DNA of 64,000 bases, taken from Bacteroidales bacterium. GTDB lineage: Bacteria; Bacteroidota; Bacteroidia; Bacteroidales; VadinHA17. Where the stretch lies: NCBI GenBank assembly GCA_020201035.1, contig JAIVHO010000031.1, forward strand, positions 294,122 through 358,121, in the 5' to 3' direction. Positions 3,702 to 64,000 of the stretch are shown piece by piece; positions within the stretch are counted from its first letter, which is position 1, and each line of letters starts with the position of its first letter. The position numbers and the translations under genes are program-made. Below the pieces are notes generated by a model, which saw nothing but the letters and a program-made list of their open reading frames with translations, searched no databases and was not told where the DNA came from.

Positions 3702-3835
3702 GCAGAAGAACCCGGGGCAGAGAAAAAGTGGCAGAAGAACCCGGGGCAGAGAAAAAGTGGCAGAAGAACCCGGACCAGAGAAAAAGTGGCAGAAGAACCC
3801 GGACCAGAGAAAAAGTGGCAGAAGAACCCGGGGCG
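3702..3835. repeat. 29-bp tandem repeat, about 4.6 copies (GCAGAAGAACCCGGRRCAGAGAAAAAGTG)
   Basis: Unit starts at 3702, 3731, 3760, 3789 and 3818. The period is not a multiple of 3. It sits in the divergent intergenic region between the activase and the carboxyltransferase. Confidence 0.95.
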
Positions 3836-3859
3836 GTGAACAAGGGGCAGGTAGCTTTA

Positions 3860-4410: not shown

Positions 4411-6168
4411 ATGACAAAAAGAAAAATAAGATTCAGTCTGGTATACAGGGATATGTGGCAATCTTCAGGCAAATACCAGCCACGCGTTGACCAGCTCAGA
4501 AGAGTTGCACCACATATTGTGGAGATGGGATGTTTTGACCGGATTGAGACAAACGGAGGTGCTTTTGAACAGGTTCAGCTGCTCTACGGTGAGAACCCGA
4601 ACAAGGCGGTAAGGGAGTGGACAAGGATATTCAATGAAGCAGGAATAGAGACACATATGCTTGAGAGAGCGCTCAATGGTATCAGAATGTTTCCTGTACC
4701 TGCTGATGTTCGCCGTTTAATGTTCAGGGTAAAAAAGGCACAGGGAGTAGATATAGCAAGATCTTTCTGTGGCCTTAATGATCACAGGAACCTCGAACTA
4801 TCCATTAAATATGCCCGGGAGGCCGGCATGATCTCACAGGCAACCCTCTCAATAACATACTCCCCGGTACACACCGTTAAATACTATATGGATGTTGTAG
4901 ACAGGGTTGTTGAATACGGAACAGATGAGATATGTCTGAAAGATATGGCCGGAGTAGGCCGGCCTGCAATGCTGGGAGAGCTTGTCAGATCCATCAGGAA
5001 GAAGTATCCCGATCTGGTTATTCAGTATCACGGTCATGTTGGACCGGGTCTCTCTATGGCATCTATGTACGAAGTTGCCCATGCCGGCGTTGACTACCTG
5101 GATGTTGCAATGGAGCCACTGAGCTGGGGAATGGTGCATCCTGACGTTATTGCAGTACAGGCAATGCTCAGGGATGCAGGGTTTGATGTACCCGATATCA
5201 ATATGGATGCATATATGAAAGTGAGGTCCCTGACAAAGGAGTTTATGGACGACTTCCTCGGATACTTTATTGATCCCCGCAACAGACAGATGACATCGCT
5301 CCTGATTGGCAGCGGGCTGCCGGGCGGAATGATGGGCAGCATGATGGCTGACCTGAAAGGAGTACATACAGGCATCAATAACACCCTTAAAGCAGGAAAC
5401 CAGCCTGAACTTACAGAAGATGAACTTCTTGTGAGGCTCTTTAAGGAGGTTGAGTATATATGGCCCAAAATGGGATACCCGCCCCTGGTTACACCCTTCA
5501 GTCAGTATGTTAAAAATGTGGCCATAATGAACATTATTCAGCTCACAAACGGCAAAGAGCGGTTTTCAATGATTGACAACAATACATGGGATATGTTGCT
5601 GGGCAGGGCAGGCATGCTTCCTGCCACCCCTGCCCCCGAGATACTGGAGATTGCAGAAATGGAAGGAAAGAGTCTGTATACCGGAGTACCCCAGGATAAC
5701 TTCCCCGATCAGCTCAACAAATATATAAAGGAGATGGAGGAGAATGGATGGGACAGGGGGCCTGACGACGAGGAGCTTTTTGAATTTGCAATGCATGAGA
5801 GACAGTACAGGGATTATAAATCTGGTATCGCCAGACAGAGATTTAATGAAGAGATAGAGAGTAAGGCAGATGAAGAGAGAGAGTCACGAAAACAGAAGGT
5901 GGATGATGGCGATAGAAACCCGGACATTATCTATGCGCCATATAACGGCATAATACTCTTCTCAGTTGGAAGCAGCGAATGCATACCAATGGAAACCCTC
6001 GACATAGCCAGGGGCGAGACAGTTACCAAAGGACAGAGAATCTGTTATATGGAATCAGGAACCAACTACAGTGAGATAGTCTCTGACCGCAGCGGAAAAA
6101 TCAGGAAAATGATGTGTAACCATGGTGATTTCCTGATGAAGGGAGAACCGATTATTGAGTTTGCATAG
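4411..6168 (+). CDS. HMGL-like carboxyltransferase (oxaloacetate decarboxylase alpha / pyruvate carboxylase subunit B family) with a degenerate biotinyl-like C-terminal domain
   Basis: YRDMWQS (RDxxQS-type), CLKDMAGVG (carbamyl-Lys motif xKDMAG) and YHGHVGPG (HxH metal ligands). The central PYC_OADA-like region has GLPGGMMGSM and PLVTPFSQYV. The C-terminal 80 aa align to a biotinyl domain, but EAMKM is ESGTN. Confidence 0.8.
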   Translation: MTKRKIRFSLVYRDMWQSSGKYQPRVDQLRRVAPHIVEMGCFDRIETNGGAFEQVQLLYGENPNKAVREWTRIFNEAGIETHMLERALNGIRMFPVPADVRRLMFRVKKAQGVDIARSFCGLNDHRNLELSIKYAREAGMISQATLSITYSPVHTVKYYMDVVDRVVEYGTDEICLKDMAGVGRPAMLGELVRSIRKKYPDLVIQYHGHVGPGLSMASMYEVAHAGVDYLDVAMEPLSWGMVHPDVIAVQAMLRDAGFDVPDINMDAYMKVRSLTKEFMDDFLGYFIDPRNRQMTSLLIGSGLPGGMMGSMMADLKGVHTGINNTLKAGNQPELTEDELLVRLFKEVEYIWPKMGYPPLVTPFSQYVKNVAIMNIIQLTNGKERFSMIDNNTWDMLLGRAGMLPATPAPEILEIAEMEGKSLYTGVPQDNFPDQLNKYIKEMEENGWDRGPDDEELFEFAMHERQYRDYKSGIARQRFNEEIESKADEERESRKQKVDDGDRNPDIIYAPYNGIILFSVGSSECIPMETLDIARGETVTKGQRICYMESGTNYSEIVSDRSGKIRKMMCNHGDFLMKGEPIIEFA

Positions 6169-14602: not shown

Positions 14603-14787
14603 TCAACTGACAAGTTAATATTTGGCCGGTATCGAAACCCAAAAAACAGCCCCTGAAAGATACAAAAAAATCATTGCAGCCACCTGATATGGCTGGCAAA
14701 TAGAATCAGGAGACCACCGTTTAACAGCAATCTGAATCGGCACTTTGGCTGTATCGCAATAATAGGGAATGTAAACCGGAAAATAAT

Positions 14788-14975
14788 GGAAAAGGAGAAG
14801 GGCCGCCAATGGAAGGGGGAACCAGGTGGAGAACGAAAAAGAGAAAAGCCTGACAATGGAAAAGGAGAAGGGCCATCAATGGAAGGGGGTACCGGGTGGA
14901 AAACGAAAAAGAGAAAAGCCTGACAACGGAAAAGGAGAAGGGCCATCAATGGGAAGGGAGAACCGGCAAAGGAGG
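14788..14975. repeat. 70-bp tandem repeat, about 2.7 copies, purine-rich on the + strand
   Basis: Units start at 14788, 14858 and 14928 (GGAAAAGGAGAAGGGCCNNCAATGGAAGGGGGNACCNGGTGGANAACGAAAAAGAGAAAAGCCTGACAAN). The period is not a multiple of 3, and the array is intergenic. Confidence 0.93.
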
Positions 14976-55147: not shown

Positions 55148-55220
55148 CCATAAATTGCAGAAGCAGGAGCAAAAAGAAAATACATTACACAATACAACTC
55201 AACAGGAAAAAACATAGAAT

Positions 55221-55320
55221 AGCAGAACCAATTGCAGAATAGCAGAACCAATTGCAGAATAGCAGAACCAATTGCAGAAAAGCAGAACCAATTACAGATA
55301 AGCAGAACCAATTACAGATA
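55221..55320 (+). repeat. 20-bp tandem repeat, 5 copies, ending exactly at the luxC-like start codon
   Basis: AGCAGAACCAATTGCAGAAT x3, then AGCAGAACCAATTACAGATA x2. Unit starts are 55221, 55241, 55261, 55281 and 55301, and the ATG is at 55321. Confidence 0.95.
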
Positions 55321-56349
55321 ATGAAACTGGTTGAACGGATAGAACCCTTTATCATACTGGGTGAGATAATGGCAGAAGCAGCATCGGCCGAACCATCCTC
55401 AGCAAGAGCTGTAGATTTGAGGAAGAAAATGGACTCAATGGTACAGTACAACAGGTGGTTCACTCCTGAAAATGTCAAAATAGCTGTTGAGGCAATATCG
55501 GGCGTGCTTACATCAGAAAAAATAACCCGGTGGCTTGAGCCTTATGACCTCAGCGGAGAGCATAAACCGCTCACGGTAGGAGTAATTATGGCAGGCAATA
55601 TCCCGCTGGTGGGGTTTCATGACCTTATCACGGTACTGCTGTCCGGCAATATGATAAAGGCAAGGATCAGCTCACGGGATCCTGAGCTGATGGAGAGTAT
55701 TATTAAAATACTTATAGAAGAAGAGCCGCGTTTTAAGCCTATAATTGAAATAACAGGAGAAAATCCTGTTGGTACGGAGGCTGTTATCGCAACAGGGAGC
55801 GATAATACCTCAAGGTATTTTGAATATCATTTCGGCAAAAGTCCTCACCTTTTCAGAAAAAACCGCTCCTCATTAGCTGTCCTGGATAGTGATACCACCA
55901 GGGATGAATTAACTCTTCTCGGGAATGATATATTCAGTTTCTTCGGGCTCGGATGCAGGAATGTATCCAGTCTATTGATTCCTGCCAACTTCGACAAATC
56001 ACTGCTCACAGAAGCATGGGAGAGTCACGGCAATCTGGCAGATCATCACGGCTGGCAAAACAATTACATATATGAAAAGGCACTCTCAACGGCAGCAGGG
56101 AAGAGATTCACAGACGGAGGATTCTTTATCCTGAGGGAGTCACCTGTGGTAACATCGCCACTTGCAGTAATCCATTATAATAGCTACCAGCACCCTGACT
56201 CTGTAAGGCAGATCATTGACCACGACCGTGATAAAATCCAAACCATTGTCGGGAAAGGACTTACACCGTTCGGCAGGGCTCAGTTTCCCGAACTATGGGA
56301 TTATGCTGATAATATTGACACAATGCGGTTTTTATTGAACATTAAATAA
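55321..56349 (+). CDS. LuxC-like acyl-CoA reductase family protein
   Basis: 342 aa from MKLVERIEPFIILG. GVIMAGNIPLVGFHD is typical of the Bacteroidota acyl-CoA reductase (LuxC) family as I recall it. The longest ORF (55252) would translate the repeat array. Confidence 0.65.
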   Translation: MKLVERIEPFIILGEIMAEAASAEPSSARAVDLRKKMDSMVQYNRWFTPENVKIAVEAISGVLTSEKITRWLEPYDLSGEHKPLTVGVIMAGNIPLVGFHDLITVLLSGNMIKARISSRDPELMESIIKILIEEEPRFKPIIEITGENPVGTEAVIATGSDNTSRYFEYHFGKSPHLFRKNRSSLAVLDSDTTRDELTLLGNDIFSFFGLGCRNVSSLLIPANFDKSLLTEAWESHGNLADHHGWQNNYIYEKALSTAAGKRFTDGGFFILRESPVVTSPLAVIHYNSYQHPDSVRQIIDHDRDKIQTIVGKGLTPFGRAQFPELWDYADNIDTMRFLLNIK

Positions 56350-58564: not shown

Positions 58565-59428
58565 TCACCCAAGGTAGGTCTTCAGAATTTTACTACGGGT
58601 AGTATACTGTATTCTCTTCAATGCCTTCTCCTTTATCTGCCTTACCCTCTCCCTGGTAAGGACAAGCTCCTCTCCTATCTCCTCCAGTGTCAGGGGATGC
58701 TTCATCCCTATCCCGAAGTAGAGTTTGATAACCTTTGCCTCCCGTGGCGACAGTGTACTTAATGCCCTCTCTATCTCATATGTCAGTGATTCATTCATAA
58801 GGTGCTTGTCGGGAGAGGGACTCTCATCAGCCTGAAGCACATCATACATATCATTATCCTCTTCATTGCTGATGGGAGCATCCATGCTTATAGTGCGGCC
58901 ATTTGACTTAATGACATCCTTTACCTCCTCCGGAGCCATATCCAGCACATCAGCGATCTCATTGGCTGAGGGCTCCCTTTCAAACTCCTGTTCCAGTTTG
59001 GCAAAAACCCTGTTGATCCTGTTAATTGATCCTATCTTGTTTACCGGAAGTCGCACAATCCTCGCCTGCTCGGCCAGTGCCTGCAGTATAGCCTGTCTTA
59101 TCCACCAAACCGCATATGAGATAAACTTAAACCCCCGTGTCTCGTCAAACCGCTGAGCAGCCTTTATAAGGCCAAGATTACCCTCATTGATAAGGTCGGG
59201 CAGACTCATACCCTGATTCTGGTACTGTTTTGCAACTGACACAACAAAGCGGAGATTTGCATTTACCAAAAGAGACAGCGCATCTCTGTCGCCACCCTTA
59301 ATACGCTTTGCCAGACTGACCTCCTCTTCAGGAGTTATCAGGTCTACCTTTCCTATCTCCTGGAGATACTTGTCCAGTGACGGTGTGTCCCTGTTGGTTA
59401 CCTGCTTTGTGATCTTTAACTGACGCAT
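58565..59428 (-). CDS. rpoD: RNA polymerase primary sigma factor (Bacteroidota sigma-A)
   Basis: A 287-aa form starting at [10 protein letters not shown], with regions 2-4 ([35 protein letters not shown]). The longest ORF adds 40 implausible residues. Confidence 0.93.
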
Positions 59429-59774
59429 ATTATCAGAACATAAAGCCGGGAGGTAGCCCGGCACTTCGTACAATGTTAATAAAAAAAAATGTTTAACAAC
59501 AATATGTGGATTAATTATATTGATTTTAAACAAGGCTATTATTATCATTAATTGAGGCTTTTAGATAAAATGCTACCCGAAAGTAATTTATGTTGCTTAA
59601 AATTTCCATCCATAACCTTGTAATATAGTGAGGTTTTATGTAATATTGCAACGGTTTTTGCAGCATAGATGTATTTATCGTTGCTACCCTGTTCTCAAGT
59701 CTGAAACAGGTTTTTTCAAATAAAAAGTAAGAATCAGGATTAATTCTAATTCAATTCCACCAAGTATTTAATTT

Positions 59775-61777
59775 ATGTATGACATTCTTGAGTTAAACAA
59801 AAAGCTGCTTCCCGATCTTAGGGAAATAGCCAAAGAGCTTAAGATCAAAAGAGTAGAATCGTACCGTAAACAGGATCTGATCTATCTCATTCTTGATCAG
59901 CAGGCTATAGAGGGCGCTGCCGGTTCAAAAAGCGGTGACAATAAAAAAAATCAGCCAGCTAAGGATAATAGTAGTAGCGAGTCTGATTTTGGTAAAGGGC
60001 GCCGACCCAGAACAAAATCTGACAGTTACGTTAAAATATCAAAGGATAAGTCGGCCCGCAAAAGTGATGAGCCGGGAAATACCGGCCACCAGAAGCCTGA
60101 ACAGGAAGCTGACAACAAGCCTTCTCCAAAAGAGGAGATCCGCCGCAATGACAACCGTCAGCCCGTGGCCGGGGGTGACAGCAGGCAACATCCTAAGGAA
60201 AATCGTAATGCCCCGGACCGTGACAGGCAGCCAAGGCGTGAACGACCATCCGTCAAATCTGACCAGAGAGATGATTCTCAGGGAGATCAGAGTAAAGAGA
60301 ACAGGCGGTCAGACCAGCGGCCAGACCAGCGGCCAGATCAGCGGTCAGATCAAGAAGAGATCAACATAAGAGCGACCAGCCGGTACAGCAGCAAAGGCAA
60401 CAGCACAGGCAGGAGCAGCAGCCACAGCAACAGCAGGAGCAGCAGCCACAGCAACAGCAGGAGCAACAGCCTCAGCAACAGCCTCAGCAACAGCCTCAGC
60501 AACAGCCTCAGCAACAGTCTCAGCAACAGTCTCAGCAACAGCCTGTCCAGCAGAGACAGCAACATCAAAGACAGCAGCAAAGTGATAACAGACCTTCGCC
60601 GGTTCAGGAAAAGAGAGAGCCAAAACAATCTGAACCTGCAGAAAAGCAGTATGAGTTTGAAGGTATTGTTGCCAATACAGGTGTACTGGAAATAATGCCC
60701 GACGGCTATGGTTTCCTCAGGTCTGCCGATTACAACTATCTCAACTCTCCGGACGATATTTATGTATCACAATCACAGATCAAACTATTTGGTCTCAAGA
60801 CAGGTGATACCGTAAAGGGGACCATCAGGCCGCCCAAAGAGGGTGAGAAATATTTCCCGCTTATTAAGGTGGAAGAGATAAACGGCCGCTCACCCGACTT
60901 TATCCGTGACCGTGTACCCTTTGATTACCTGACGCCTCTCTTCCCTGATGAGAAATTCACTCTATGCACACCGGGAGAGGGTAATACATCGGTAAGGGTT
61001 GTGGATATGTTTTCACCCATTGGCAAGGGACAGAGAGGGCTTATCGTAGCCCAGCCAAAGACAGGAAAAACGGTACTGCTCCAGGATATAGCCAACGCTA
61101 TAGCCAAGCATCACCCGGAGGTTTACCTTATGATTCTGCTTATTGATGAAAGACCTGAAGAGGTTACCGATATGGCAAGGAACGTAAATGCCGAGGTAAT
61201 AGCTTCTACTTTTGATGAACCGGCAGAAAGGCATGTAAGGGTTGCCAATATTGTGCTTGAAAAGGCAAAAAGAATGGTTGAATGTGGTCATGATGTAGTT
61301 ATACTGCTCGACTCCATTACCAGGCTGGCACGTGCCTTTAATACCATATCACCTGCTTCAGGCAAGGTACTCTCAGGTGGTGTTGACTCCAATGCTCTGC
61401 ATAAACCCAAAAGGTTTTTTGGCGCTGCCCGTAATATCGAACACGGCGGATCACTGACCATCCTTGCAACGGCACTCACAGAGACCGGTTCAAAGATGGA
61501 TGATGTGATTTTCGAGGAGTTTAAGGGAACAGGGAACATGGAGCTTCAGCTCGACCGTAAGCTTTCTAACAGAAGGATATTCCCTGCCATCGATATTCCC
61601 GCCTCAAGCACCAGAAGGGAAGATCTGCTTCTTGATAAGCACGCCCTGAATAAAATCTGGATACTCCGCAACTATCTTACCGATATGAATTCGGTTGAAG
61701 CGATGGAATTTCTGCGTGACAGAATAAACAAGACCCGCTCAAACGAGGAGTTCCTTGTATCAATGAACGGAGAATAG
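59775..61777 (+). CDS. rho: transcription termination factor Rho with a long low-complexity N-terminal insertion; the reading frame changes within 60296-60692 (apparent frameshift or assembly indel)
   Basis: Frame 0 encodes the N-terminal helix bundle plus an RD/Q-rich insertion. Frame 2 encodes [25 protein letters not shown], Walker [26 protein letters not shown] and the remaining Rho body through to the stop at 61777. Confidence 0.88.
60310..60547 (+). repeat. in-frame coding tandem repeats inside the rho insertion
   Basis: CAGACCAGCGGC x about 3 (60310-60345), a 24-bp unit x2 (60411-60458), and CAACAGCCTCAG x7 (60464-60547). All periods are multiples of 3. Confidence 0.9.
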
Positions 61778-61784
61778 ATAGTCA

Positions 61785-61810
61785 AATCTCCGGATTCTAA
61801 TCCGGAGATT
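61785..61810 (+). terminator. stem-loop after rho
   Basis: A 10-bp perfect stem, AATCTCCGGA-TTCTAA-TCCGGAGATT. The downstream T-run is weak. Confidence 0.5.
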
Positions 61811-61843
61811 GATCTATTGCTATGTCAAAAATATTATTGTTAA

Positions 61844-64000
<2,157 letters not shown>

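Follow-up and report, generated by a model that had tools for sequence, protein, structure and literature searches.

A single missing A in the repeat-rich linker divides the rho gene of a Bacteroidales MAG between two reading frames

The window, i.e., the whole stretch of 64,000 nucleotides of contig JAIVHO010000031.1 that was analysed, carries a rho gene whose coding sequence is distributed over two reading frames of the plus strand. According to the ORF listing and the translation, the first of these (frame 0) runs from the ATG at 59775 to the TAA at 60693-60695 and encodes 306 amino acids, of which residues 6-47 match the Pfam profile Rho_N (PF07498, E = 6.6e-13). The second frame (-1/+2) opens past a TAA at 60293-60295 and ends with the stop at 61777; it carries the Walker A motif and the remaining Rho, with Pfam matches to PF07497 (Rho_RNA_bind, OB/CSD-like) and PF00006 (RecA-type ATPase), and in the PDB alignment its product covers residues 51-416 of E. 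coli Rho (E = 1.6e-149). Between residue 47 and the YEFEG motif lies a low-complexity insertion of about 240 aa. All domains of a Type 2 Rho are present in the window, but the single continuous frame is interrupted at 60352-60353. The features of the locus are the following, where P0001 denotes the intact Rho of a second MAG of the same species and L081 its locus:

59775-60353, plus strand: 5' part of rho in the original frame (codons 1-193), comprising the Rho_N helix bundle (Pfam) and ~146 aa at the start of the disordered insertion; it matches residues 1-193 of P0001 with 100% identity

60305-60349, plus strand: 12-nt tandem repeat GCGGCCAGACCA in 3.8 copies (TRF), coding for SDQRPDQR units and ending 2 nt short of the deletion site

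60352-60353, plus strand: frame-break site, AA in place of the AAA of the intact allele (TCAAAGAAG to TCAAGAAG), the missing base falling between Gln193 (CAA) and Arg194 (AGA) in the DNA alignment with L081

60353-61777, plus strand: 3' part of rho in the -1 frame, with the remaining Gln/Pro-rich insertion, the Rho_RNA_bind OB fold, the ATPase domain and the stop codon (translation; identical to P0001 over residues 254-651)

60354-60695, plus strand: tail of the frame-0 ORF, translated out of frame (...SNSLSNSL...VYWK*)

60386-60544, plus strand: 24/12-nt tandem array coding for (QQQP/QQQE)n (TRF), 48 nt longer in the window than in the other MAG according to the alignments (two units, 16 aa, in frame)

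60693-60697, plus strand: TAATG, in which the frame-0 stop overlaps the only start codon of the downstream frame

60695-61777, plus strand: 360-aa ORF from an internal ATG, corresponding to residues 58-419 of E. coli Rho (Pfam; PDB alignment)

The original prediction, made from the letters of the window, placed Rho_N in an upstream frame and the conserved body in a downstream one, and the ORFs, the translation and the Pfam matches reproduce exactly this layout. The overlap of about 400 nt that it described amounts to 397 nt (60296-60692). Furthermore, the -1 frame contains no ATG, GTG or TTG from 60296 onward until the ATG at 60695, where the ORF listing begins it, as had been stated. The conclusion that the downstream frame is unable to initiate on its own holds only in part: no start codon precedes 60695, but the ATG at this position could in principle serve. 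The long stretch open in both frames is unremarkable in itself, since it is largely a by-product of the CAG/CAA/CCT array at 60386-60544, which is stop-free in all six frames and also yields 92-aa ORFs on the minus strand. Passage through this array is also the main reason why the tail of the frame-0 ORF contains no stop.

In its architecture, the gene conforms to the known type of Bacteroidota Rho that carries a disordered insertion. In Bacteroides thetaiotaomicron, this insertion comprises KE-rich plus Q/N-rich prion-like subdomains; Rho is reported to be essential in this species, and a mutant without the disordered region grows normally in the laboratory (PMC13269538). The window gene shows the same order, with Rho_N followed by the insertion, whose first part is charged (K/R/D/E/S-rich) and whose second part is Gln-rich, and then by Rho_RNA_bind and the ATPase domain. 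It differs from the B. thetaiotaomicron protein in two respects: the Gln-rich part is Q/P-rich and derives from 12/24-nt tandem repeats, the copy number of which differs between the two known genomes, and the gene is interrupted by a 1-nt deletion.

The protein databases were searched with the hand-joined Rho sequence. The top match, P0001 (97% identity, 100% coverage), is a protein of 651 aa annotated as Rho of a Bacteroidales MAG; its source is contig JBHEOK010000096.1 of GCA_046260785.1, the second MAG of the same Bacteroidales species. This sister contig, compared with the window as loci L081, L088, L089 and L091, is ~99.9% identical to it over 62.8 kb. Within the DNA coding for the rho linker, the window and L081 differ at only two points, namely one A and 48 nt in the repeat array. 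Where L081 reads TCAAAGAAG, the window reads TCAAGAAG, so that the AAA run is short by one A and only AA is left at 60352-60353. In tblastn, residues 1-193 of P0001 match the window with 100% identity up to 60353, and residues 254-651 match with 100% identity in the other frame. Consequently, a -1 step at 60353 restores the intact protein exactly, save for 16 extra in-frame Gln/Pro-rich residues, and the repaired Rho of the window has a length of 651 + 16 = 667 aa.

These comparisons bear directly on several of the earlier expectations. The switch of frame at 60353 falls within the interval of 60350-60362 where the junction had been placed, the repaired length agrees with the predicted full-length product of about 667 aa, and the proposed 1-nt indel is corroborated by the 99.9%-identical genome, in which the extra A is present and rho forms one intact ORF. 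Judged from the aligned sequences, the split of rho is an ordinary one-base deletion with respect to a near-identical genome. The additional proposal that the indel was introduced during assembly fares less well: the indel itself is there, but its assembly origin is not established, as neither a second 1-nt indel nor another broken gene occurs in the 62.8 kb.

This last point emerges from the comparison of window regions 1-34148 and 35311-64000 with the sister contig, which together make up the 62.8 kb. The two assemblies differ by about 40 substitutions, by five multi-nucleotide length differences and by exactly one single-base indel, the one in rho. Every one of the five length differences lies in a tandem-repeat array (3702-3850, two in 14785-14966, 55216-55318 and 60386-60544), and the copy number differs between the assemblies in all four tandem-repeat regions found in the window. 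Of the 38 sister-contig genes, 37 are full-length and colinear on the window, the exception being an 81-aa hypothetical ORF inside a repeat array, and rho is the sole broken gene among those compared. The single 1-nt indel, together with the full-length state of nearly all genes, indicates that the assembly is not generally indel-prone. The deletion site itself is flanked by repeats, since it follows the 12-nt tandem repeat by 2 nt and precedes the 24-nt array by 33 nt.

The three arrays other than that of rho have units of 29 nt (3702-3850), 70 nt (14785-14966) and 20 nt (55216-55318) and lie clear of the long ORFs and of the genes that were mapped from the sister contig; all the remaining length differences between the two assemblies (58, 22, 46 and 20 nt) fall in them. 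The 70-nt array overlaps only the 81-aa hypothetical ORF, and the 20-nt array is situated just upstream of a 342-aa gene of unknown function. The Q/P-rich array of rho is longer in the window, by two 24-nt units (16 aa), than the corresponding segment of L081 (5610-5720). The length of the Q-rich Rho segment would therefore be polymorphic within the species, unless the array has collapsed in one of the assemblies. The region coding for the insertion also contains a run of eight A (59943-59950, ...DNKKNQ...), which plays no part in the break because the two genomes share it unchanged and the second frame opens only downstream of it.

Beyond the sister MAG, the next relative is P0002 (83% identity, 635 aa), an intact protein encoded by 19 contigs of the JGI, ENA and Logan collections. 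The survey of relatives comprised 80 rho loci from species-representative genomes of related Bacteroidota, of which four were not scorable. Rho_N and the RNA-binding domain share one stop-free frame in 73 of the 76 scored loci, with linkers of 89-264 aa. The gene is broken in the other three (L011, L013 and L015), each time within the linker, at unrelated sites and with differing directions of shift. Several frame changes are needed in L011 (3289-4001), whose contig bears a name in the style that we take to be associated with long-read assemblies. A single shift suffices in L013 (3387-4019), on a contig with a coverage of 5.x, and a run of N extends across the linker of L015 (3253-4001). None of the 80 relative loci has a break in the 375-aa Rho core.

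When the window is included, all four breaks fall in the linker, which accounts for roughly a third of the gene. Selection cannot explain this bias, since a frameshift in the linker ruins the downstream core as much as a frameshift in the core does. It can be explained by errors or mutations that are locally more frequent in repetitive DNA of low complexity. In practical terms, rho breaks in Bacteroidales MAGs favour the repeat-rich linker, and calls of a "split rho" merit suspicion.

Further witnesses of either allele were sought in sequence collections, where the species was found only as the two NCBI MAGs. Exact look-ups of the products of the 306-aa and 360-aa ORFs returned no record, hence there is no independent assembly with the same split among these records. 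Two junction scans of JGI metagenome contigs, accepting AA or AAA, gave 0 matches. A contig with identical RpoB and sigma factor was considered as a possible third genome and set aside: it carries the window-specific Ser217 variant of the 342-aa protein (55321-56349; MCA1756693.1, locus tag LC649_04480) and is the window's own source rather than an independent witness.

The arrangement of the two frames resembles that of genes with a programmed frameshift, such as dnaX (-1), prfB (+1) and the IS3-family transposases, in which two frames overlap and no start in the downstream one precedes the conserved domain. Programmed -1 ribosomal frameshifting or transcriptional slippage, as a designed feature of rho expression in this lineage, would make use of precisely the 397-nt overlap and of a downstream frame devoid of its own start before the conserved domain. 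Unlike these genes, however, the window rho lacks a slippery sequence, shows a break that is not conserved among relatives and has a sister allele that reads through in one frame. The region 60293-60695 is devoid of X XXY YYZ heptamers in all frames, and the longest homopolymer in the overlap is A4, in agreement with what had been noted from the letters; the region 59000-62200 gives no Rfam match. Programmed transcriptional slippage typically involves an A or T homopolymer of nine or more at the shift site, far longer than the A4 run observed. The 99.9%-identical genome and the next lineage (P0001 and P0002) both have rho in a single frame, and the broken rho genes of the other relatives differ in site and direction. 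The doubt expressed at the outset about recoding was justified by this conservation check, and programmed recoding, being extremely improbable, was rejected.

Taking into account the whole of these data, we consider a consensus error of the MAG, adjoining tandem repeats, as the most likely origin of the missing A, with a probability of about 0.6. The window rho would then be an ordinary Bacteroidales rho, in whose product a long disordered insertion separates the N-terminal helix bundle from the RNA-binding domain; the absence of one A from the AAA run in the insertion-coding linker would shift the remaining gene to the -1 frame, and the organism would make one Rho of ~667 aa, with no recoding mechanism. 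We infer a technical rather than a biological cause since rho is essential in the sole species of the order tested, no decay is seen in the gene, the site borders on tandem repeats that differ in length between the assemblies, and all other broken relatives break in the linker, two of the three being visibly weak assemblies (coverage of 5.x; run of N). The lack of decay is seen downstream of the break, where 398 aa are 100% identical to P0001, although this has little power at a genome identity of 99.9%.

Some observations speak against an error. There is no other 1-nt indel in the 62.8 kb and 37 of the 38 neighbouring genes are full-length; with the remainder of the window so clean, a generally error-prone consensus is not the explanation. 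A change from AAA to AA affects only a short homopolymer, and such runs are not among the classic error hotspots. As a GATC immediately precedes the deletion, an error of long-read basecalling next to a Dam-type GATC was considered as its cause, which would be speculation.

The deletion may also be real. In that case a frameshift of very recent date would have left rho inactive or much weakened, as a nascent pseudogene or hypomorph that yields the 306-aa N-terminal fragment and at most traces of functional Rho. We regard this as possible, though distinctly less probable than an error. Real single-base indels do occur between strains at such divergence, and a sole 1-nt indel in an otherwise clean 62.8 kb fits a polymorphism as well as an error. 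Moreover, the approximately 40 substitutions and five repeat-length differences characterize the two MAGs as genuinely different strains. According to two reports, some bacteria can do without Rho, and adaptation repeatedly targets Rho variants (PMC12258240, PMC7446863). On the other hand, Rho is essential in the one Bacteroidales species tested, B. thetaiotaomicron (PMC13269538), which makes a fixed knockout unlikely a priori; nothing downstream of the break has decayed, the scorable relatives are intact in 73 of 76 cases, and tblastn with P0001 reveals no second rho copy within the window. Were the deletion real, a factor considered essential in the order would have been lost or severely impaired in nature, and nothing here argues for this. 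If the missing A is a consensus error, it matters for annotation only, and the organism almost certainly has a normal Rho of ~667 aa. On the sequence evidence, the split is not supported as a biological feature.

A variant of the real deletion would be one that the cell tolerates, either by restarting at the ATG at 60695 after the TAA, giving a 360-aa core, or by rare spontaneous -1 slips within the 397-nt dual-open stretch, giving full-length Rho. The overlap of stop and start in TAATG is suggestive of the former. The bases at 60693-60697 nevertheless belong to ATA-ATG, the codons of the conserved Ile-Met pair in ...LEIMPDG..., when these are read in another frame. The same TAATG is present in the intact L081, whereas L082, of the P0002 lineage, has ATT-ATG and hence no TAA. 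As the bases already exist in the intact allele, TAATG was rejected as an adapted signal for translational coupling and represents a coincidence rather than an adaptation.

The product of such a restart would lack the Rho_N helix bundle. Natural Rho forms of this kind exist as Type 4, which is defined by the absence of the N-terminal domain only (PMC11347177), and the 360-aa ORF resembles them in being without Rho_N. In contrast to Type 4, with its complete N-terminal RNA-binding domain, the ORF begins at L58 of E. coli Rho and at position 8 of the 73 of the Rho_RNA_bind profile (covering 8-73, vs 2-73 in P0001), so that the first 7 profile positions (E. coli residues 51-57) are missing as well. 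Based on the E. coli structure, the product would probably also lose the first strand of the OB fold. Regarding the slips, the dual-open stretch lies in the region whose sequence B. thetaiotaomicron does not need for growth, its delta-IDR mutant being viable (PMC13269538), but it offers no slippery site. A tolerated deletion is, in our view, very unlikely. Cells actually living on a real AA allele by rare -1 slips or by the TAATG restart, possibly aided by derepression of rho at low Rho activity, would be very unlikely indeed; if they did, the disordered linker would act as a frameshift-tolerant buffer in an essential gene.

In the annotation of the source MAG, the stretch leading up to rho is occupied by MCA1756694-97 (a 173-aa protein, MiaA, Rpe and the sigma factor), and no Rho protein close to P0001 has an entry for this MAG (LC649_, MCA17566xx). 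The missing entry would fit a pseudogene flag set by the annotator. A one-base indel relative to an intact ortholog, an otherwise identical sequence and a source genome without the protein entry are features shared with annotation-flagged frameshift pseudogenes and assembly indels. Nothing distinguishes the window rho from these, and its only unusual point is that the gene is normally essential. Elsewhere in the window, a 585-aa biotin/lipoyl protein (pyruvate carboxylase subunit B-like, 4411-6168) is identical to MFN2380273.1 of the sister MAG, and no MCA accession from the source genome holds its sequence, which suggests a different start call or an omission in the annotation.

The primary sigma-factor ORF on the minus strand (58565-59548) is open for 327 aa from its first ATG and is annotated with 287 aa in both MAGs. 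Since the sigma factor lies on the opposite strand, the 226-nt gap to rho holds two divergent promoter regions. The promoter and terminator scan returned generic consensus matches only, and, presumably for want of a T-run, it omitted a perfect inverted repeat, TCTCCGGATT-cta-ATCCGGAGA, at 61786-61812. This repeat, located 10 nt past the rho stop, is likely a terminator hairpin.
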